DNA from: an uncultured Clostridia bacterium
GTDB lineage: Bacteria; Bacillota; Clostridia; Christensenellales; Aristaeellaceae
DNA length: 32,000 bases
Direction: 5' to 3'
Assembly (NCBI GenBank): GCA_937907055.1
Contig: CALCTW010000107.1
Location: 4,985-36,984, forward strand
Shown piece by piece: positions 916-17,318 of the stretch. The notes below the pieces were generated by a model that was not told the DNA's origin, did not search any database, and saw nothing but the letters and a program-made list of their open reading frames with translations. Numbering within the stretch: position 1 is the stretch's first letter; the number at the start of each line of letters is the position of its first letter. A program made the position numbers and the translations under genes.

Positions 916-2091
916 TTACAGCGCCTTCAAAAGCATCATGAAGGCCACCAGGATGATCAGGAACGCGAAGTTGAACGCCGAGAACAGCAGCACATAGCGG
1001 CCGCCCTTCCCGGGATTGTGCTTCCTGTATTCGCGGAAGGTGATCAGGCTGGCCAGCGAGGCGATCAGTGTACCGACACCGCCGATATTGACACCCACCA
1101 GCAGATCGGCGTAATTCTCCGTGAACTGTGAAAGCAGGATGGCGCTGGGCACGTTACTGATGCACTGGCAGGAAAGCACGGAGGAAAGCAGCGTGGAGTT
1201 CTCCATCAGCCCTCTGAAAAGCTCCTGCACAGCGCCGATCCGCGCCATGTTGCCGGCAAAGACGAAGAAGAACACGAAGGTGAACAGCAGCGTGTAGTCC
1301 ACCATCTTCAGAGCCTTGCGGTCCATCACGAACAGCACAGGCGGGATGACGATGAGGCCGATCCAGTACGGAATGAAACGGAAAACGATGACGATCGCCA
1401 GCGTGAAGAGCAGCAGATAGATGACCGCGCGGCCGCGGTTGAAATCGATCCGCTCATCCGGCAGCTCAAGCGGTTCGTTTTTCACAAATACCAGACAACA
1501 GACGGTGATCAGCGTCACGCTGAGCAGAAACGGCGGCGCCATGATGCTGACGAACTCTGCCGTGGGGATATTGAAATGCGAATACAGATACAGGTTCTGC
1601 GGATTGCCGAACGGCGTGAGCATGCCGCCCAGATTGGCCGCGATATTCTGCATGATAAAGGTAAAGGCCATGTATTTTTCTTTTTTTGTGGTGGTCAGTA
1701 CCAGAAATCCCAGCGGCAGGAAGGTGAGCAGCGCCATATCATTGGCGATCAGCATGCTGCCGATGAAGGTGATATACACCAGCGCCAGCACAGCCATCCG
1801 CGCGTTCCGGAACAGCTGGATCACCTTTCTGGCCAGCATGAAGAAGAAATTGATATTCTTCAGCGCGCACACCACCGCCAGCACACAGAAAAGGCAGGTG
1901 AGGGTCTTGTAATCAAAGTAATCGATGTACTTTTCATCCGGCGGAATGATGAACGCGGTGATGACCGCCGCGCACAGCGCGATGCACATGACCACATTCC
2001 GCTTGACGAAGCCGAACGCCCGCTTCAAAAAGGGTTTCCCCTGCTTCGCCGGAGCGGCTGTCAAAGCCCCTTCTGTATTCTCTTCCTTCAT
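916..2091 (-). CDS. Multi-pass membrane permease, ArsB/NhaD/citrate-transporter superfamily (YbiR-like)
   Basis: Long hydrophobic ORF with about 10 predicted TM segments and a GGMLTPFGNPQNL motif typical of this permease superfamily. I trimmed the ORF-track start (2184) to ATG 2091 (MKEENTEG..) because the upstream part overlaps a leader downstream of a consensus promoter. Stop is TAA. Confidence 0.6.
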   Translation of the reverse strand: MKEENTEGALTAAPAKQGKPFLKRAFGFVKRNVVMCIALCAAVITAFIIPPDEKYIDYFDYKTLTCLFCVLAVVCALKNINFFFMLARKVIQLFRNARMAVLALVYITFIGSMLIANDMALLTFLPLGFLVLTTTKKEKYMAFTFIMQNIAANLGGMLTPFGNPQNLYLYSHFNIPTAEFVSIMAPPFLLSVTLITVCCLVFVKNEPLELPDERIDFNRGRAVIYLLLFTLAIVIVFRFIPYWIGLIVIPPVLFVMDRKALKMVDYTLLFTFVFFFVFAGNMARIGAVQELFRGLMENSTLLSSVLSCQCISNVPSAILLSQFTENYADLLVGVNIGGVGTLIASLASLITFREYRKHNPGKGGRYVLLFSAFNFAFLIILVAFMMLLKAL

Positions 2092-2276
2092 ATACCGTTC
2101 ATCTCTTTCTTTACTGATCTCCGGCCTTCCGGAGGAACTGATAGATCCCGATCGGCGTATATCCTTGAACACGCGGCCCGGCAATCCGTCAGATCCTCAG
2201 CAGAATATGCTTCTCCGCCGGCACTGCAAAGCCCAAGCCCTGTCCTGCAGGGCTTTCCGGGCGCAAAGCCCACACG
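2092..2276 (-). promoter_or_regulatory. About 185-nt GC-rich structured 5' leader of the permease gene (unclassified; riboswitch-like alternative pairings)
   Basis: On the minus-strand RNA, GGGCUUUGC occurs twice. AAAGCCC can pair with GGGCUUU, while the overlapping AAGCCCUG pairs with CAGGGCUU. There is also a CUCCGG-AAGG-CCGGAG hairpin just before the RBS region. Confidence 0.35.
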
Positions 2277-2305
2277 ATTTTACCGCCTGTCCCCCCCTTT
2301 GTCAA
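2277..2305 (-). promoter_or_regulatory. Sigma-A type promoter of the permease gene
   Basis: Minus strand reads TTGACA (2305-2300), a 17-nt spacer, then TAAAAT (2282-2277). Confidence 0.6.
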
Positions 2306-2371
2306 TCATTATTGCTCTGCCTTATGTCTATCACTTTTGTAGATAAATACAATCCGAATACAATTAACCTA

Positions 2372-2400
2372 TTGACTCGGTAGGTATTTGATGATAAAGT
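2372..2400 (+). promoter_or_regulatory. Sigma-A type promoter of the Met/Cys leader ORF - metY unit
   Basis: TTGACT (2372-2377), a 17-nt spacer, then TAAAGT (2395-2400). Confidence 0.6.
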
Positions 2401-2431
2401 AAAGACACTTCAAAGAAAGGAGGCAGACACC

Positions 2432-2526
2432 ATGAAGAAGAGCACCTTCACCCGTGAGAGCATGATGATGCGAATGGACATGTGCATGTGCATGTGTCTT
2501 CATTTCGTGTGTGTCTGCAGCCGTTG
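2432..2526 (+). CDS. 31-aa Met/Cys-rich small ORF, candidate regulatory leader peptide for metY
   Basis: RBS AAAGGAGG ends 8 nt before ATG 2432. Translation is MKKSTFTRESMMMRMDMCMCMCLHFVCVCSR, with stop TGA at 2524-2526. The ORF is below the length cutoff of the supplied ORF track. Confidence 0.55.
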
Positions 2527-2550
2527 ATCTGTAACGGTATCTCTCCTGAC

Positions 2551-2581
2551 AGGGGCAGCACACGCTGCCCCTCTTTTATTT
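2551..2581 (+). terminator. Intrinsic terminator (attenuator) between the leader ORF and metY
   Basis: AGGGGCAGC (2551-2559), ACAC loop, GCTGCCCCT (2564-2572), followed by CTTTTATTT. Confidence 0.7.
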
Positions 2582-2722
2582 GAAAGGATGTATGTTTTAT
2601 GAGAAAGCTTCTCCCGAACCGCGTGACAGACCGAATGTAACGATCCGCTGTAAACGATCCCCGGAAACCTCTTCATCAAATATCACCATCCCAACTAAAA
2701 GAAAGATAAAGGAGATTAAACC

Positions 2723-4003
2723 ATGAGTCAGTATAAATTTGAAACCCTGCAGCTTCACGTCGGTCAGGAAACTCCCGATCCCGCCTCTGATGCCCGCGCC
2801 GTACCGATCTACGCCACCACCTCCTATGTGTTCCACAACAGCCAGCACGCGGCGGACCGCTTCGGTCTGGCCGATGCCGGTAACATCTACGGCCGTCTGA
2901 CCAATTCCACGCAGGGCGTGTTTGAACAGCGCATCGCCGCGCTGGAAGGCGGCACGGCCGGCCTGGCAGTCGCCTCCGGCGCCGCGGCCATCACCTACAC
3001 GCTGCAGGCGCTGGCCAGGCAGGGCGAGCATATCGTCGCGCAGAAGACCATCTACGGCGGCACCTCCAACCTGCTGGCGCACACGCTGCCGCTGTACGGC
3101 ATCACGGCTTCCTTCGTGGATGCCCATAACCTTGCCGAAGTCGAGAGCGCCATTCAGCCCAACACCAAGGCCATCTATATCGAAACACTGGGCAATCCCA
3201 ATTCCGATATTCCGGATATCGACGCCATCGCGGAGATCGCCCACAAGCATGGCCTGCCGCTGGTGATCGATAACACCTTCGGCACCCCCTACCTGATCCG
3301 CCCCATCGAACACGGCGCGGATGTCGTGATCCATTCCGCCACCAAATTCATCGGCGGCCATGGCACCACGCTGGGCGGTGTGATCGTCGACGGCGGCACC
3401 TTCGACTGGGCGGCTTCCGGCCGTTATCCCTGGATCTCCGAGCCCAACCCCAGTTATCACGGTGTCCGCTTCACCGCGGCTGCCGGTGCCGCTGCCTTTG
3501 TCACCTACATCCGCGCCATTCTGCTGCGCGATGAAGGTGCCTGCATCTCCCCCTTCGCGGCCTTCCTGCTGCTGCAGGGCACGGAAACGCTTTCCCTTCG
3601 TCTGGAACGCCATGCCGAAAATGCCAAAAAGGTGGTCGATTTCCTGGTCAGGCATCCCAAGGTCGCCAAGGTGAATCATCCCAGTCTGCCCGATCATCCC
3701 GATCACAAGCTGTATGAAAAGTATTTCCCGAACGGCGGCGCCTCCATCTTTACCTTTGAGGTCAAGGGCGGTCAGGCGGAAGCCTTCAAATTCATTGACA
3801 GCCTGAAGATCTTCTCCCTGCTGGCCAATGTGGCGGATGTCAAATCGCTGGTGATCCACCCTGCCACCACCACGCACTCCCAGCTGACGGATGAAGAACT
3901 GGCGGATGTCGGCATCTCCCGCAGCACCGTCCGCCTTTCCATCGGCACAGAACATATCGATGATATCCTTGCTGATCTGGATCAGGCGCTGGCGCAGATC
4001 TGA
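2723..4003 (+). CDS. metY: O-acetylhomoserine sulfhydrylase / aminocarboxypropyltransferase (PLP-dependent, Cys/Met metabolism family)
   Basis: 426 aa. N-terminus is FETLQLHVGQ; the PLP-lysine region is HSATKFIGGHG; the C-terminus is HPATTTHSQL..RLSIGTEHIDDI. RBS AAAGGAG precedes the start; stop is TGA. Confidence 0.9.
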   Translation: MSQYKFETLQLHVGQETPDPASDARAVPIYATTSYVFHNSQHAADRFGLADAGNIYGRLTNSTQGVFEQRIAALEGGTAGLAVASGAAAITYTLQALARQGEHIVAQKTIYGGTSNLLAHTLPLYGITASFVDAHNLAEVESAIQPNTKAIYIETLGNPNSDIPDIDAIAEIAHKHGLPLVIDNTFGTPYLIRPIEHGADVVIHSATKFIGGHGTTLGGVIVDGGTFDWAASGRYPWISEPNPSYHGVRFTAAAGAAAFVTYIRAILLRDEGACISPFAAFLLLQGTETLSLRLERHAENAKKVVDFLVRHPKVAKVNHPSLPDHPDHKLYEKYFPNGGASIFTFEVKGGQAEAFKFIDSLKIFSLLANVADVKSLVIHPATTTHSQLTDEELADVGISRSTVRLSIGTEHIDDILADLDQALAQI

Positions 4004-4028
4004 TCATCTGAATATTCCTTTTATTGCA

Positions 4029-4064
4029 GCGGAACGGGTTCCTCCCCCGTTCCGCTCTTTATTT
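4029..4064 (+). terminator. Intrinsic terminator after metY
   Basis: GCGGAACGGG (4029-4038) / CCCGTTCCGC (4046-4055), followed by TCTTTATTT. Confidence 0.8.
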
Positions 4065-4154
4065 GACGGCATCACGGTCCTTTCGTGAAATCGCCCTTTT
4101 CTCGCATTCCGCTTTATGGTATAATCCTTTCATCTGAGCATGGGAGGTACGCGT

Positions 4155-6479
4155 ATGCGTTTATGGTATCAGCAGCCCGCTGCCGCGTGGGTGGAAGCGC
4201 TTCCGCTGGGGAACGGCCGTCTGGGCGCCATGGTATTCGGTGATCCGCTGCACGAAAGGTTTGCCCTCAATGAGGATTCCCTCTGGAGCGGGATCCCCAC
4301 CGATCACAACCTGAAGGATGTCTATCCGCATTTCCTGAAGGCGCAGGAGCTGATGCTCTCCGGCGATGCCGCTGCCGCGCAGCGTGAGACCGAAAAGCAT
4401 ATCCTGGGGCCCTTCACGGAGGCCTATGAGCCTTACGGCGATCTGTATCTGGATATCACAGGCGCGTGCGATACCTGCACCGGCTACACCCGGGAGCTGG
4501 ATCTGGACCGCGCTGTCTGCACTGCGCAATATGTCCTCGGCAATGAACAGGTCCGCGTGGAAAGCTTTATTTCCGCGCCCGAACAGGTGATGGTCATCCG
4601 TCTTGCGGCATCAGACCGCGGCGTCACCGCCCGTGCGCGTCTTGACAGCCCTCTGAAGCACAGCTGCCGCACGGAAGAGGGCAATACCCTGCTCATGGCC
4701 GTGCAGTGCCCCACCGGTTCTGTACCCAGTTATGTGCCCGGTGTGCCGGATCCGGTGACCTACGCGGAGGACCAAGAAAAGCGCGGCCTTTCCGCCGTCG
4801 GCATCCTGAAGGCTGTCTGCGACGGCACCTGCGCGGTCTGTGAAAATACCCTCATCCTGTCCGGCTTCAGCGAGGCCGTTCTTGTATTTGCCTGCCGCAG
4901 TGATTACGCCGATTTTAATATCCTGCCCTCCAGGACCGGCATCGATCCCGAAGCGCTCAGCCGCGCCGATCTTGAAAAAGCCGGTCTTTCATTCGAACCG
5001 CTCCTGAAAGCGCACGAGCAGGATCATGCCGCTCTTTATCAGCGCCAGTCCATTCAGGTGGAAGGCAACGAACGCGAAACGCTTCCCACGGATGAACGGC
5101 TGCGCCTTTTCCGGGAAGACGGCAATGATCCCTCCCTGCCCGTGCTGCTGTATCAGTTCGGACGCTATCTGATGATCAGCGCGTCCCGCCCGGGTACCCG
5201 CGCCATGAACCTGCAGGGCATCTGGAACGATATGGTGCGTCCGCCATGGAGCTGCAACTACACCACCAATATCAATGTGGAAATGAACTACTGGCCGGCC
5301 GAGATCTGCAATCTGTCCGAGCTGCACGAGCCCTTCTTTACTCAGCTGCAGCACATGATGGAGACCGGCGCGCGCACAGCCAGAAATATCTTTAACGCGC
5401 GCGGAAGCTGCGCCAATCATAACTCCGACCTTTGGGCGCACACCACCCCGGTGGGCGAGCACGGCATCGGCAACGGTCTGTGGGGCTGGTGGCCGATGGG
5501 CTTTGGCTGGATGTGTGAGCATCTGTGGGAGCATTTCATCTACACCGATGATACCGTCTTCCTGAAGGAGACCGCGCTTCCCCTGCTGCGCGCCGCGGCG
5601 CAGTTCTTCATCGATACCTGCGCGGAAGGGCCGGACGGCTATAAGGCATTCCGGCTTGCCACCTCTCCCGAGAACCGCTACCTGCTGAACGGTGAGGAGA
5701 TCGCCTTTGCCGGTCATACCACCATGAGCGACAGCATCGTGCGCGAGGTGCTTTCCAACTACCTTTCCGCGCTGGATGCGCTGGGCATCACGGAGGATGA
5801 CGAAAATGACGCCCGTGATCTGCTGCTTCGTCTGCCTCCGCCGCGCGTCCTGCCGGATGGAAGGCTGGCGGAATGGGACGGGGAAAAACAGGAGGTGGAA
5901 CCGCAGCACCGCCATATCTCCCACCTTTACGGGCTTTTCCCGGCGCATGAATTCAAGGATGAGGACACCGCCCTTCGCGACGCCTGCAAAGCCTCGCTGG
6001 CTGTGCGCGGCGATGACGGCACGGGCTGGAGCCTGGGCTGGAAGATCAACGTGTGGGCGCGCCTGCGCGACGGCGATCACGCGCTGAAGCTGATCCATCG
6101 TCAGCTTCGTCTGGTGGAACCGGGCAAGGAGCAGTTCGAAGGCGGCGGCACATTCCCCAATCTCTTCGACGCGCATCCCCCGTTCCAGATCGACGGCAAC
6201 TTCGCGGCAGCCAGCGGTCTCGCCCGTCTGCTGATCGACAGCGACCGTGATGACATCCGCATCCTCCCGGCCCTGCCTTCCGCGTGGAAGAATCTGCAGG
6301 CGACCGGGCTTCGCGGCGCGAACGGCTTCACCTTCGATCTGAAGGTGGAAAACGGCAAACTGACCTCGCTGGTGGCGCACAGCGTTTCCGCGCGCCGCAC
6401 AAGGATCCATGTCAACGGCATCATCGGGGAACTGACCATACAGCCCGGCGATTCCATGGAAATGGCCTATATCTTCTGA
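4155..6479 (+). CDS. Glycoside hydrolase family 95 (alpha-L-fucosidase-like)
   Basis: The N-terminus MRLWYQQPAAAWVEALPLGNGRLGAMVFG and the roughly 775-aa length are typical of GH95. I chose the start at the second ATG (4155) because GGGAGG lies 8 nt upstream. An extended -10 TGGTATAAT lies upstream. Stop is TGA. Confidence 0.8.
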   Translation: MRLWYQQPAAAWVEALPLGNGRLGAMVFGDPLHERFALNEDSLWSGIPTDHNLKDVYPHFLKAQELMLSGDAAAAQRETEKHILGPFTEAYEPYGDLYLDITGACDTCTGYTRELDLDRAVCTAQYVLGNEQVRVESFISAPEQVMVIRLAASDRGVTARARLDSPLKHSCRTEEGNTLLMAVQCPTGSVPSYVPGVPDPVTYAEDQEKRGLSAVGILKAVCDGTCAVCENTLILSGFSEAVLVFACRSDYADFNILPSRTGIDPEALSRADLEKAGLSFEPLLKAHEQDHAALYQRQSIQVEGNERETLPTDERLRLFREDGNDPSLPVLLYQFGRYLMISASRPGTRAMNLQGIWNDMVRPPWSCNYTTNINVEMNYWPAEICNLSELHEPFFTQLQHMMETGARTARNIFNARGSCANHNSDLWAHTTPVGEHGIGNGLWGWWPMGFGWMCEHLWEHFIYTDDTVFLKETALPLLRAAAQFFIDTCAEGPDGYKAFRLATSPENRYLLNGEEIAFAGHTTMSDSIVREVLSNYLSALDALGITEDDENDARDLLLRLPPPRVLPDGRLAEWDGEKQEVEPQHRHISHLYGLFPAHEFKDEDTALRDACKASLAVRGDDGTGWSLGWKINVWARLRDGDHALKLIHRQLRLVEPGKEQFEGGGTFPNLFDAHPPFQIDGNFAAASGLARLLIDSDRDDIRILPALPSAWKNLQATGLRGANGFTFDLKVENGKLTSLVAHSVSARRTRIHVNGIIGELTIQPGDSMEMAYIF

Positions 6480-17231: not shown

Positions 17232-17318
17232 GCCGGTGTGATGGAATTGGCAGACGTAGTGGACTCAAAATCCACCGCTGGCGACAGCGTGCCGGTTCGA
17301 GTCCGGCCACCGGCACCA
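17232..17318 (+). tRNA. tRNA-Leu (anticodon CAA), class II with long variable arm, encoded CCA
   Basis: Acceptor stem GCCGGTG/CACCGGC. Anticodon stem GTGGA/TCCAC with loop CTCAAAA. T-arm GCCGGTTCGAGTCCGGC. Long variable arm; 3' ACCA. Confidence 0.9.

Follow-up and report, generated by a model that had tools for sequence, protein, structure and literature searches.

A Met/Cys-rich upstream open reading frame precedes metY

We analysed a 32,000-nt stretch of DNA, referred to as the window (contig CALCTW010000107.1, positions 4,985 to 36,984, of GenBank assembly GCA_937907055.1), from an uncultured Clostridia bacterium of the Aristaeellaceae, and in it the region upstream of metY (2723-4003; all features lie on the plus strand unless stated otherwise). 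An earlier reading, made from the letters of this stretch and hereafter called the sequence-only reading, had taken the gene for an O-acetylhomoserine sulfhydrylase, in line with its match to TIGR01326 (617 bits, cutoff 495) and to Pfam Cys_Met_Meta_PP, and had proposed that a short upstream open reading frame (uORF) rich in methionine (Met) and cysteine (Cys) codons forms a ribosome-mediated attenuator together with the terminator behind it. Positions 2367-2722 are best explained as the regulatory leader of metY, with a probable attenuator core at 2416-2581. Judged from sequence and comparison, we give a probability of about three in four to the reading that this first uORF (uORF1) and the terminator are a ribosome-mediated transcription attenuator responding to Met- and Cys-tRNA charging.

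The leader is headed by a sigma-70-type promoter (2372-2400) with a -35 element TTGACT (2372-2377), a 17-nt spacer and a -10 element TAAAGT (2395-2400) preceded by TG, which agrees with the TTGACT-17-TAAAGT promoter claimed earlier. A consensus scan returned it as the sole plus-strand match within 1800-4300 and found no further promoter-like site within 2401-2722. After a 5' untranslated region of about 25 nt, uORF1 (2432-2527) encodes the 31-codon leader peptide MKKSTFTRESMMMRMDMCMCMCLHFVCVCSR. Its Shine-Dalgarno sequence (SD), AAAGGAGG (2416-2423), lies 8 nt ahead of the ATG at 2432 and is as strong a ribosome-binding site as had been predicted. Start and sequence of the frame, previously given as 2432-2526, also hold; its stop had been placed one nucleotide too early, and is TGA at 2525-2527 rather than 2524-2526.

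Between residues 11 and 29 of the peptide, 12 of the 19 residues are Met (seven) or Cys (five), exactly as counted before. The putative sensor codons 11-22 (2462-2497) comprise seven AUG and three UGY and include a CGA-AUG pair at 2471-2476; Met and Cys codons alternate here, in a frame with neither a leaderless start nor a run of consecutive Cys codons. This stretch is unique in the window: in none of the six frames does another stop-free stretch of 19 residues in the 32 kb exceed eight Met/Cys residues, the best counts in 20 shuffled windows were 5-8, and, given the Met+Cys frequency of the window, the binomial P is ~3e-13. The Met/Cys repeat at 2477-2498 folds on itself in the minimum free energy (MFE) structure, another feature that the sequence-only reading had anticipated. 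Gene callers list an identical 31-residue peptide in two further assemblies, and the leaders there share 99% identity with that of the window.

Firmicutes methionine genes are textbook cases of control by S-box riboswitches, which bind S-adenosylmethionine (SAM), and by T-boxes. No Rfam family matched the leader when the whole window was scanned at the gathering threshold, and a permissive scan of 2250-2800 (E<=10) gave only noise. Likewise, no SAM riboswitch or T-box was found by Rfam upstream of metY in 40 related loci, which agrees with the earlier failure to recognise either element by eye; the one T-box among related loci (L034) lies on the opposite strand, ~0.8 kb upstream of metY. The full-text literature searched, most subscription journals being outside its coverage, contained no description of a Met or Met/Cys leader peptide, and to our knowledge a methionine leader-peptide attenuator is not among the classical attenuators.

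Mutually exclusive pairings in the leader RNA

The leader RNA is strongly structured, with a z-score of -5.5 for the MFE of 2400-2600. In MFE folds, region 1 (GGAGGCAGACACCAUGAAGAAG, 2419-2440), which covers the SD, the start and the first codons of uORF1, pairs with region 2 (UUCAUUUCGUGUGUGUCUGC, 2499-2518). The duplex of region 1 with region 2 (1:2) is predicted at -22 to -24 kcal/mol (z = -2.49 against dinucleotide shuffles), and this SD/anti-SD helix, as it appears in the folds, was overlooked in the sequence-only reading. The MFE folds also contain a small hairpin, GCCGUUGAUCUGUAACGGU (2520-2538), that includes the uORF1 stop codon. A comparable stop-codon hairpin appears in the fold of another locus (L150), and L107 carries a similar sequence.

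An intrinsic terminator (2551-2581) begins 24 nt past the uORF1 stop. Its hairpin (2551-2572) has nine pairs, seven of them G-C, a 4-nt loop and a predicted energy of about -18 to -19 kcal/mol, and is followed by a T-rich tract (CTTTTATTT / CUUUUAUUU; T-tract 2573-2581), matching the 9-bp GC hairpin and U-tract described before. Region 3 (2552-2563) consists of the terminator 5' arm and loop and region 4 of positions 2564-2572. Region 3 (GGGGCAGCACAC) is a near copy of region 1 (GGAGGCAGACAC), and region 2 can therefore pair with either. In the second case GUGUGUCUGC (2509-2518) pairs with GCAGCACAC (2555-2563) with one bulged U at -15 to -19 kcal/mol, so that the complementarity pointed out earlier is real and provides an alternative to the terminator (2:3 instead of 3:4). 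Both alternative pairings of region 2 are lengthened by CUCUCC at 2541-2546.

Constraint folds, in which the positions covered by ribosomes were masked, formed the terminator without any ribosome and also with a ribosome at the uORF1 stop, the latter in agreement with the sequence-only reading. When a ribosome stalled in the Met/Cys run and another at the start site were both masked and region 4 was not yet transcribed, 2509-2518 paired with 2555-2563 instead.

Related leaders precede genes of Met and Cys uptake and synthesis

Relatives were taken from 80 metY loci of other genomes (loci are given by L numbers) and from a metagenome scan for the promoter motif described below, a gap of 85-115 nt and ATGTGCATG, a pattern that fixes no reading frame. 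Four of the metY loci (L022, L028, L063 and L074) show the same order of promoter, Met/Cys-rich uORF, small hairpin, terminator, second uORF and metY. From the scan came 120 loci that encode 32 different peptides rich in Met and Cys, among them MKKFDSNIMMMEMCMFSMRMCMCMPF..., MFASSSSTTMCMCMCIM... and MKQQTATLKVNTMCMCMCMMCCC...; 30 of these peptides lay on long enough contigs to give, with the window and the four metY loci, a set of 35 distinct leaders. An SD and start are present in the Met-Cys-Met frame of all 35, compared with 1/35 in each of the other frames, and the first Met/Cys cluster follows at a median of nine codons from the start. Every one of the 35 also has a terminator-like hairpin with a T-run (-9 to -27 kcal/mol), which begins 7-48 nt past the uORF stop in 34 and overlaps the stop in L107.

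Met and Cys make up 22% of the residues of the family peptides after exclusion of the MCM forced by the pattern; both Cys codons are in use (UGC 84, UGU 50), and the run keeps its composition with variable order. The genes behind the leaders encode MetQ/NlpA lipoproteins, MetN (ABC+NIL), MetY and other Cys_Met_Meta_PP (metB/C-like) enzymes, as well as an SDF symporter, a YeiH-like protein and a GDSL protein. Upstream of metY and of other Met/Cys uptake and synthesis genes, uORFs rich in Met and Cys are thus conserved along with an in-frame SD and start, as the sequence-only reading would have it. Within populations, versions of the commonest leader vary by entire Met/Cys codons. That leader, MKKFDSNIMMMEMCMFSMRMCMCMPFS[ND]ELPSNE, occurs in L083 and ~90 further loci from human gut assemblies, ahead of a MetQ/NlpA lipoprotein gene.

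The first search patterns had suggested three uORF families (A, B and C). This division was given up, since bridging loci (L027, L038 and L168) and a shared CGA-AUG core make B and C one class, and A is the second uORF. About one third of the loci L001-L080 lack both the promoter motif and a uORF, among them L001, whose metY lies behind a cysK-like gene.

Met/Cys-run leaders and the second uORF (Y)FEKLVRxNFRFGRM were observed in three phyla, including Treponema metagenome-assembled genomes (L016, L040 and L060), Anaerovibrio lipolyticus DSM 3074 (L004) and many Clostridia, together with highly similar metY genes (75-88% identity). This distribution suggests that metY gene and leader move together. 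Besides A. lipolyticus, cultured organisms with a related leader include Lachnospiraceae bacterium YSD2013 (L054), Ruminococcaceae bacterium YAD3003 (L014) and Agathobaculum sp. (L027).

Conservation and covariation of the antiterminator pairing

In a subfamily resembling L074, the terminator arm and loop (GGAGA-N3-UAUCGGA) are the pairing partner of region 2 (UCCGAUA-N3-UCUCC). In an alignment of nine sequences, made of two blocks concatenated by hand and with a structure derived from the same sequences, pairing holds in 95.4% of cells and both sides have changed in 5 of 12 pairs; none of 500 shuffles reached this pairing, and slid registers gave at most 68%. A corresponding pairing of -15 to -32 kcal/mol joins region 2 (CUCCCGGGCA) and the terminator (UGCCCGGGAG) in B-type metY leaders (MMCCRMLxSRAxxMAG...), with 96.9% of cells paired, three pairs changed on both sides and a covariation score reached by 0/500 shuffles. 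The antiterminator is therefore supported by compensatory changes in two subfamilies of relatives. Over the 3' part of the uORF, L074 and L022 share the RNA stretch but differ in reading frame, indicating conservation as RNA rather than as peptide.

Among three strains, that of the window included, a single site varies in the 166 nt from SD to T-tract, compared with 17 sites in 227 flanking nt. The variable site, A2425G in strains L081/L082, changes an A-U pair of the 1:2 duplex to G-U, so that pairing is kept.

Sequence and comparison thus show which parts the leader has, that these are conserved, which genes they accompany and that the pairings exclude one another. With uORFs, terminators and covariation in two subfamilies found as a leader-peptide attenuator predicts, and with no known riboswitch, the comparison supports the Met/Cys attenuator of the sequence-only reading. 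That model has to be amended by an unremarkable 2:3 pairing in the window, a stronger 1:2 pairing, a second uORF and an operator-like promoter.

A second uORF carries a CGA-AUG codon pair

Between terminator and metY lies a second frame, uORF2 (MRKLLPNRVTDRM, 2599-2640), with an SD-like AAAGGA (2583-2588) and an end formed by CGA (2632-2634), AUG (2635-2637) and UAA (2638-2640). Set beside its relatives, it is a divergent member of a family of CGA-AUG uORFs. It is invariant among the three strains, and its flanks vary. In relatives, uORF2 is often of A-type and encodes (Y)FEKLVRxNFRFGRM. Here, Arg at -8 and -4 is written with 5-6 codons each and Leu at -10 with six codons, which argues for selection at the peptide level in A-type uORF2; the Arg directly before Met is CGA in 38 of 40. 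Other flavours of uORF2 encode IHLNYSTR-MC or YLKLFSPFDIRHWR-MC, and CGA-AUG is kept in all of them. The commonest leader is likewise followed by a uORF2 of its own, (V/M)QYLKLFSPFDIRHWR-MC.

Upstream of metY, CGAATG occurs on the coding strand in 51 of 79 cases and on the reverse strand in four, and 71 of 107 distinct leaders contain a uORF with in-frame CGA-AUG, with ~8 hexamers expected by chance. In the long open reading frames of the window, a rough set with some spurious members, CGA accounts for six of 410 Arg codons (~1.5%), yet CGA-AUG is present in both uORFs (2471-2476 and 2632-2637). The codon after CGA-AUG is variable (Cys, stop, Arg or Leu); several A-type uORF2s stop right after Met, as does uORF2 of the window, whose peptide has the C-terminal R-M alone in common with the conserved family. 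No terminator was found after A-type or other gene-proximal uORF2s, where the spacer is rich in A and poor in G.

For several A-type leaders, folding predicts that the metY SD opens when a ribosome sits on CGA-AUG; its unpaired probability rises from 0.13 to 0.75 in L035 and from 0.04 to 0.47 in L059. In the window the metY SD, AAGGAG (2709-2714), is predicted to be unpaired at 0.85 with or without a ribosome on uORF2, which rules out masking of this SD by uORF2, and a structured region around uORF2 was ruled out by a z-score of +0.8 for 2582-2730. Pairing of CGAAUG with a downstream ACAUUC near the gene SD occurs in only a few loci and was dismissed, as was a T-box-like specifier reading of CGA-AUG-U, since a T-box match and a purine behind the codon are both missing.

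In yeast, CGA codon pairs are described as slowing decoding through inosine:adenine (I:A) wobble in the P site (bioRxiv 10.1101/755652). By analogy, it is plausible that such wobble of CGA would delay reading of the codon that follows it at uORF2.

An operator-like promoter and a monocistronic gene

An operator-like motif, ACCTATTGACTCGGTAGGT (2367-2385), forms a palindrome, ACCTA-N9-TAGGT, around the -35 element and has a single exact match in the window. In 43 of 82 loci, the form ACCTATTGAC-N4-TAGGT (also given as -N4-TRGG) precedes metY or sulfur genes next to it. The ACCTATTGAC motif also fronts NifS-like genes and some metY genes without any uORF. As it is shared with promoters of uORF-less NifS-like genes, a putative transcription factor can be envisaged as an added layer, and the motif is probably the site of this putative regulator. 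The operator-like promoter and the CGA-AUG uORF2 would form two further layers around the attenuator.

The motif ACCTATTGAC-N4-TAGGT overlaps the -35 element, and a third TAGGT often precedes the -10 element. The promoter motif is common to metY leaders of Lachnospiraceae, Oscillospiraceae, Treponema and Anaerovibrio, and further copies were located at L003:955, L045:522, L050:971, L057:988 and L078:918.

A terminator-like hairpin behind metY (4028-4056, from a hairpin scan) indicates that the unit is monocistronic. An exact-sequence look-up of the window's MetY gave no match. On the minus strand, a strong promoter-like site TTGACA-17-TAAAAT (2277-2305; 11/12) is directed at a gene for a CitMHS-family transporter (916-2184, minus strand), so that the intergenic region has divergent promoters. 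Antisense to metY runs a 452-codon open reading frame (2597-3955, minus strand), most likely a spurious open frame of the type found in G+C-rich coding DNA. A tRNA-Leu gene with anticodon CAA (17232-17318) is the only RNA gene detected in the window.

A model of Met/Cys attenuation and its alternatives

From these parts we infer stalling at the AUG/UGY run, induction by starvation, and thus the direction of the response, kinetic competition between the pairings, a queued ribosome and the way in which region 2 is freed. In the repressed state with uORF1 untranslated, region 2 would be held by region 1, the 3:4 terminator would form and transcription would end near 2581. If uORF1 were translated smoothly to its stop, region 2 would be held by region 1 or covered by the terminating ribosome, and the terminator would again form. 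When Met or Cys is scarce, the lead ribosome would stall in codons 11-22, and a second ribosome would probably queue behind it at the start site, so that region 1 would be occupied and region 2 free. Free region 2 would then pair with the emerging 5' arm of the terminator, and RNA polymerase would read on into metY. The conserved spacer of 8-12 codons before the run would leave room for such a second ribosome on the start site, where it would occupy region 1, and this idea fits the constraint folds with both ribosomes masked.

Several findings weigh against an attenuator of this kind. Taken in the window, the 2:3 antiterminator duplex is no better than dinucleotide shuffles (z = -0.64, p = 0.23), and because the window's close relatives are all 99% identical, there is no covariation for its own 2:3 pairing. 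Family-wide duplex z-scores are modest, with means of -1.3 (2:3) and -1.4 (1:2) for leaders that are not mutually independent. As 1:2 is stronger than 2:3, one ribosome in the Met/Cys run does not suffice to free region 2: with one ribosome masked there, 1:2 and the terminator still fold. The proposal that a stalled ribosome frees the antiterminator therefore fails for a single ribosome, which is ruled out as sufficient in the thermodynamic model, and would hold for a stalled ribosome with a second one queued behind it and region 4 unmade, where 2:3 forms. The induced state would accordingly require steric exclusion or a queued ribosome, both of them proposals within the folding model. In addition, the terminator beats the antiterminator by about 6-10 kcal/mol at equilibrium, so that once region 4 exists read-through must rest on kinetic trapping; in the trp attenuator, too, the terminator is more stable once region 4 is made. 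Two Cys codons (2510-2512 and 2516-2518) lie within region 2, and a stall there would favour termination. Finally, control by methionine could lie mostly with the conserved promoter motif.

This last point leads to a different explanation, in which a transcription factor at the promoter motif exerts the main methionine control. Here uORF1 and its terminator would stop part of the transcripts constitutively or yield a small transcript of their own, and the Met/Cys codons would arise as a by-product, from an (AUGUGC)n RNA hairpin that is complementary to itself. We regard it as unlikely. The motif is indeed widespread among the loci and is found at NifS-like and some metY promoters without a uORF, and AUG/UGC runs are inherently self-complementary and do fold. 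A by-product of folding, however, would not account for SD and start in the Met-Cys frame of every one of the 35 leaders, for a Met/Cys order that varies at constant composition with use of both Cys codons, or for variants of the commonest leader that differ by whole codons. A constitutive stop would have no need of the covarying antiterminator with which the terminator comes, and a promoter layer and an attenuator layer are compatible rather than mutually exclusive. Sensing of a free metabolite (methionine or SAM), through an undescribed riboswitch fold or through arrest by a nascent peptide as in TnaC/SpeFL, for which uORF2 would be the most plausible place, appears improbable. The strong structure of the leader would suit it, as would the conservation of FEKLVRxNFRFGRM at the amino-acid level in relatives' uORF2 and the stop right after Met in several of these and in the window. 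Yet Rfam gives no match, the SD/anti-SD, antiterminator and terminator pairings explain every conserved RNA segment, the variable codon after CGA-AUG fits a hungry-codon stall better than arrest at termination, and uORF2 of the window matches the conserved peptide family in its last residues alone.

The sequence-only reading had itself offered an alternative, a stand-alone metal-binding micropeptide. In its wider form, uORF1 would be a Met/Cys/His-rich metal or redox binder, or the precursor of a ribosomally synthesised and post-translationally modified peptide, with its own terminator and no relation to metY control. The peptide is rich in Cys, Met and His, gene callers list it on two assemblies and a terminator of its own is present. 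Against this, the run is conserved in composition alone and has no conserved core sequence, the C-terminal part is in differing frames among relatives with its RNA conserved, and the frame is always directly upstream of Met/Cys genes on the same strand, in the window among genes for the CitMHS transporter, MetY and a GH95 enzyme and without maturation or export genes. We therefore disfavour this alternative and hold it to be very improbable.

Returning to the attenuator, the leader of the window is most likely, on the comparative evidence, one member of a widespread switch among gut anaerobes that reports sulfur amino-acid supply via ribosomes. A more far-reaching proposal, which we put forward only tentatively and consider doubtful in its entirety, is an undescribed, widespread sulfur amino-acid 'ribulon' of human and animal gut anaerobes (Clostridia, Negativicutes and Treponema), in which ribosomes would read Met/Cys at two tandem uORFs behind a shared operator-bearing promoter. 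In it, uORF2 would be a new type of sensor, consisting of a single AUG (often then UGY) that is rate-limited by an invariant but otherwise avoided CGA in the P site through I:A wobble, in many lineages plus the conserved nascent peptide FEKLVRxNFRFGR-M.

If the attenuator reading is true, uptake and synthesis of methionine are governed by ribosome stalling at mixed Met/Cys codons in many human and animal gut anaerobes, including a very common human-gut organism with such a leader on metQ. Attenuation would gain a new specificity, metY regulation in riboswitch-less genomes would be accounted for, and small open reading frames sometimes listed by gene callers as hypothetical proteins would have a function. 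Among amino-acid pathways, methionine has been the odd one out, with riboswitch or T-box control and no classical leader peptide. The near-invariant CGA-AUG, in turn, offers a testable case of a rare codon pair as a bacterial regulatory device.

Comparison with known leader systems

The metY leader resembles the classical attenuators (trpL, hisL, pheL, leuL, thrL and ilv) in having a short open reading frame with an SD, regulatory codons from about codon 9-11 and a terminator followed by a biosynthetic gene, as well as exclusive 1:2, 2:3 and 3:4 pairings with termination as the default without a ribosome. At the sequence level it compares well with trp/his/leu-type attenuators, with the exception of the antiterminator pairing in the window alone. 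It differs from them in that it would sense Met and Cys together, which lie outside the classical set, and in that region 1 is its own SD and start, so that the stall site falls in the loop between regions 1 and 2 and not inside region 1. Moreover, its terminator 5' arm mimics the SD, and the attenuator stands between an operator-like promoter and a second uORF. With S-box (SAM-I) riboswitches and Met T-boxes it shares the gene set (metY, metQ/N and metB/C) and a read-out by terminator versus antiterminator in the 5' leader; in contrast to these it has no covariance-model match, and the proposed sensor is the translating ribosome and not an RNA aptamer or a tRNA-binding RNA.

In mycobacteria, stalling at Cys codons of leaderless polycysteine short open reading frames controls Cys operons of the 'Cys ribulon' (bioRxiv 10.1101/834739), and leader peptides with Cys runs have been predicted in Actinobacteria (PMC1262725). 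Together these are the closest precedent from sulfur metabolism; they read Cys alone and either are leaderless or have no terminator. In both the Cys ribulon and the leaders described here, stalling would occur at sulfur amino-acid codons of a small upstream frame, at many loci that form a regulon without a dedicated regulator. The mycobacterial frames are leaderless, with runs of Cys alone and no intrinsic terminator behind them, and work through exposure of the next ribosome-binding site, whereas the metY leader has an SD, mixed Met/Cys codons and a terminator/antiterminator, with a metY SD predicted to be open (0.85). Some A-type relatives do show unmasking of the ribosome-binding site at uORF2 in the folding model, as in the mycobacterial frames.

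Tandem short open reading frames are also known from the Salmonella mgtCBR leader, where the signals are Pro, ATP and Mg2+ (PMC3641672). Both leaders contain two short frames, each thought to couple translation to downstream expression. They differ in their signals, and uORF2 of metY has no terminator behind it and carries the near-invariant CGA-AUG. With TnaC and SpeFL, uORF2, and not uORF1, has in common a conserved short peptide upstream of a metabolic gene, members that stop after the critical residue and an unstructured, G-poor spacer. It departs from TnaC and SpeFL in that the codon after Met is not always a stop and in that the conserved feature is a codon pair and not the peptide alone.

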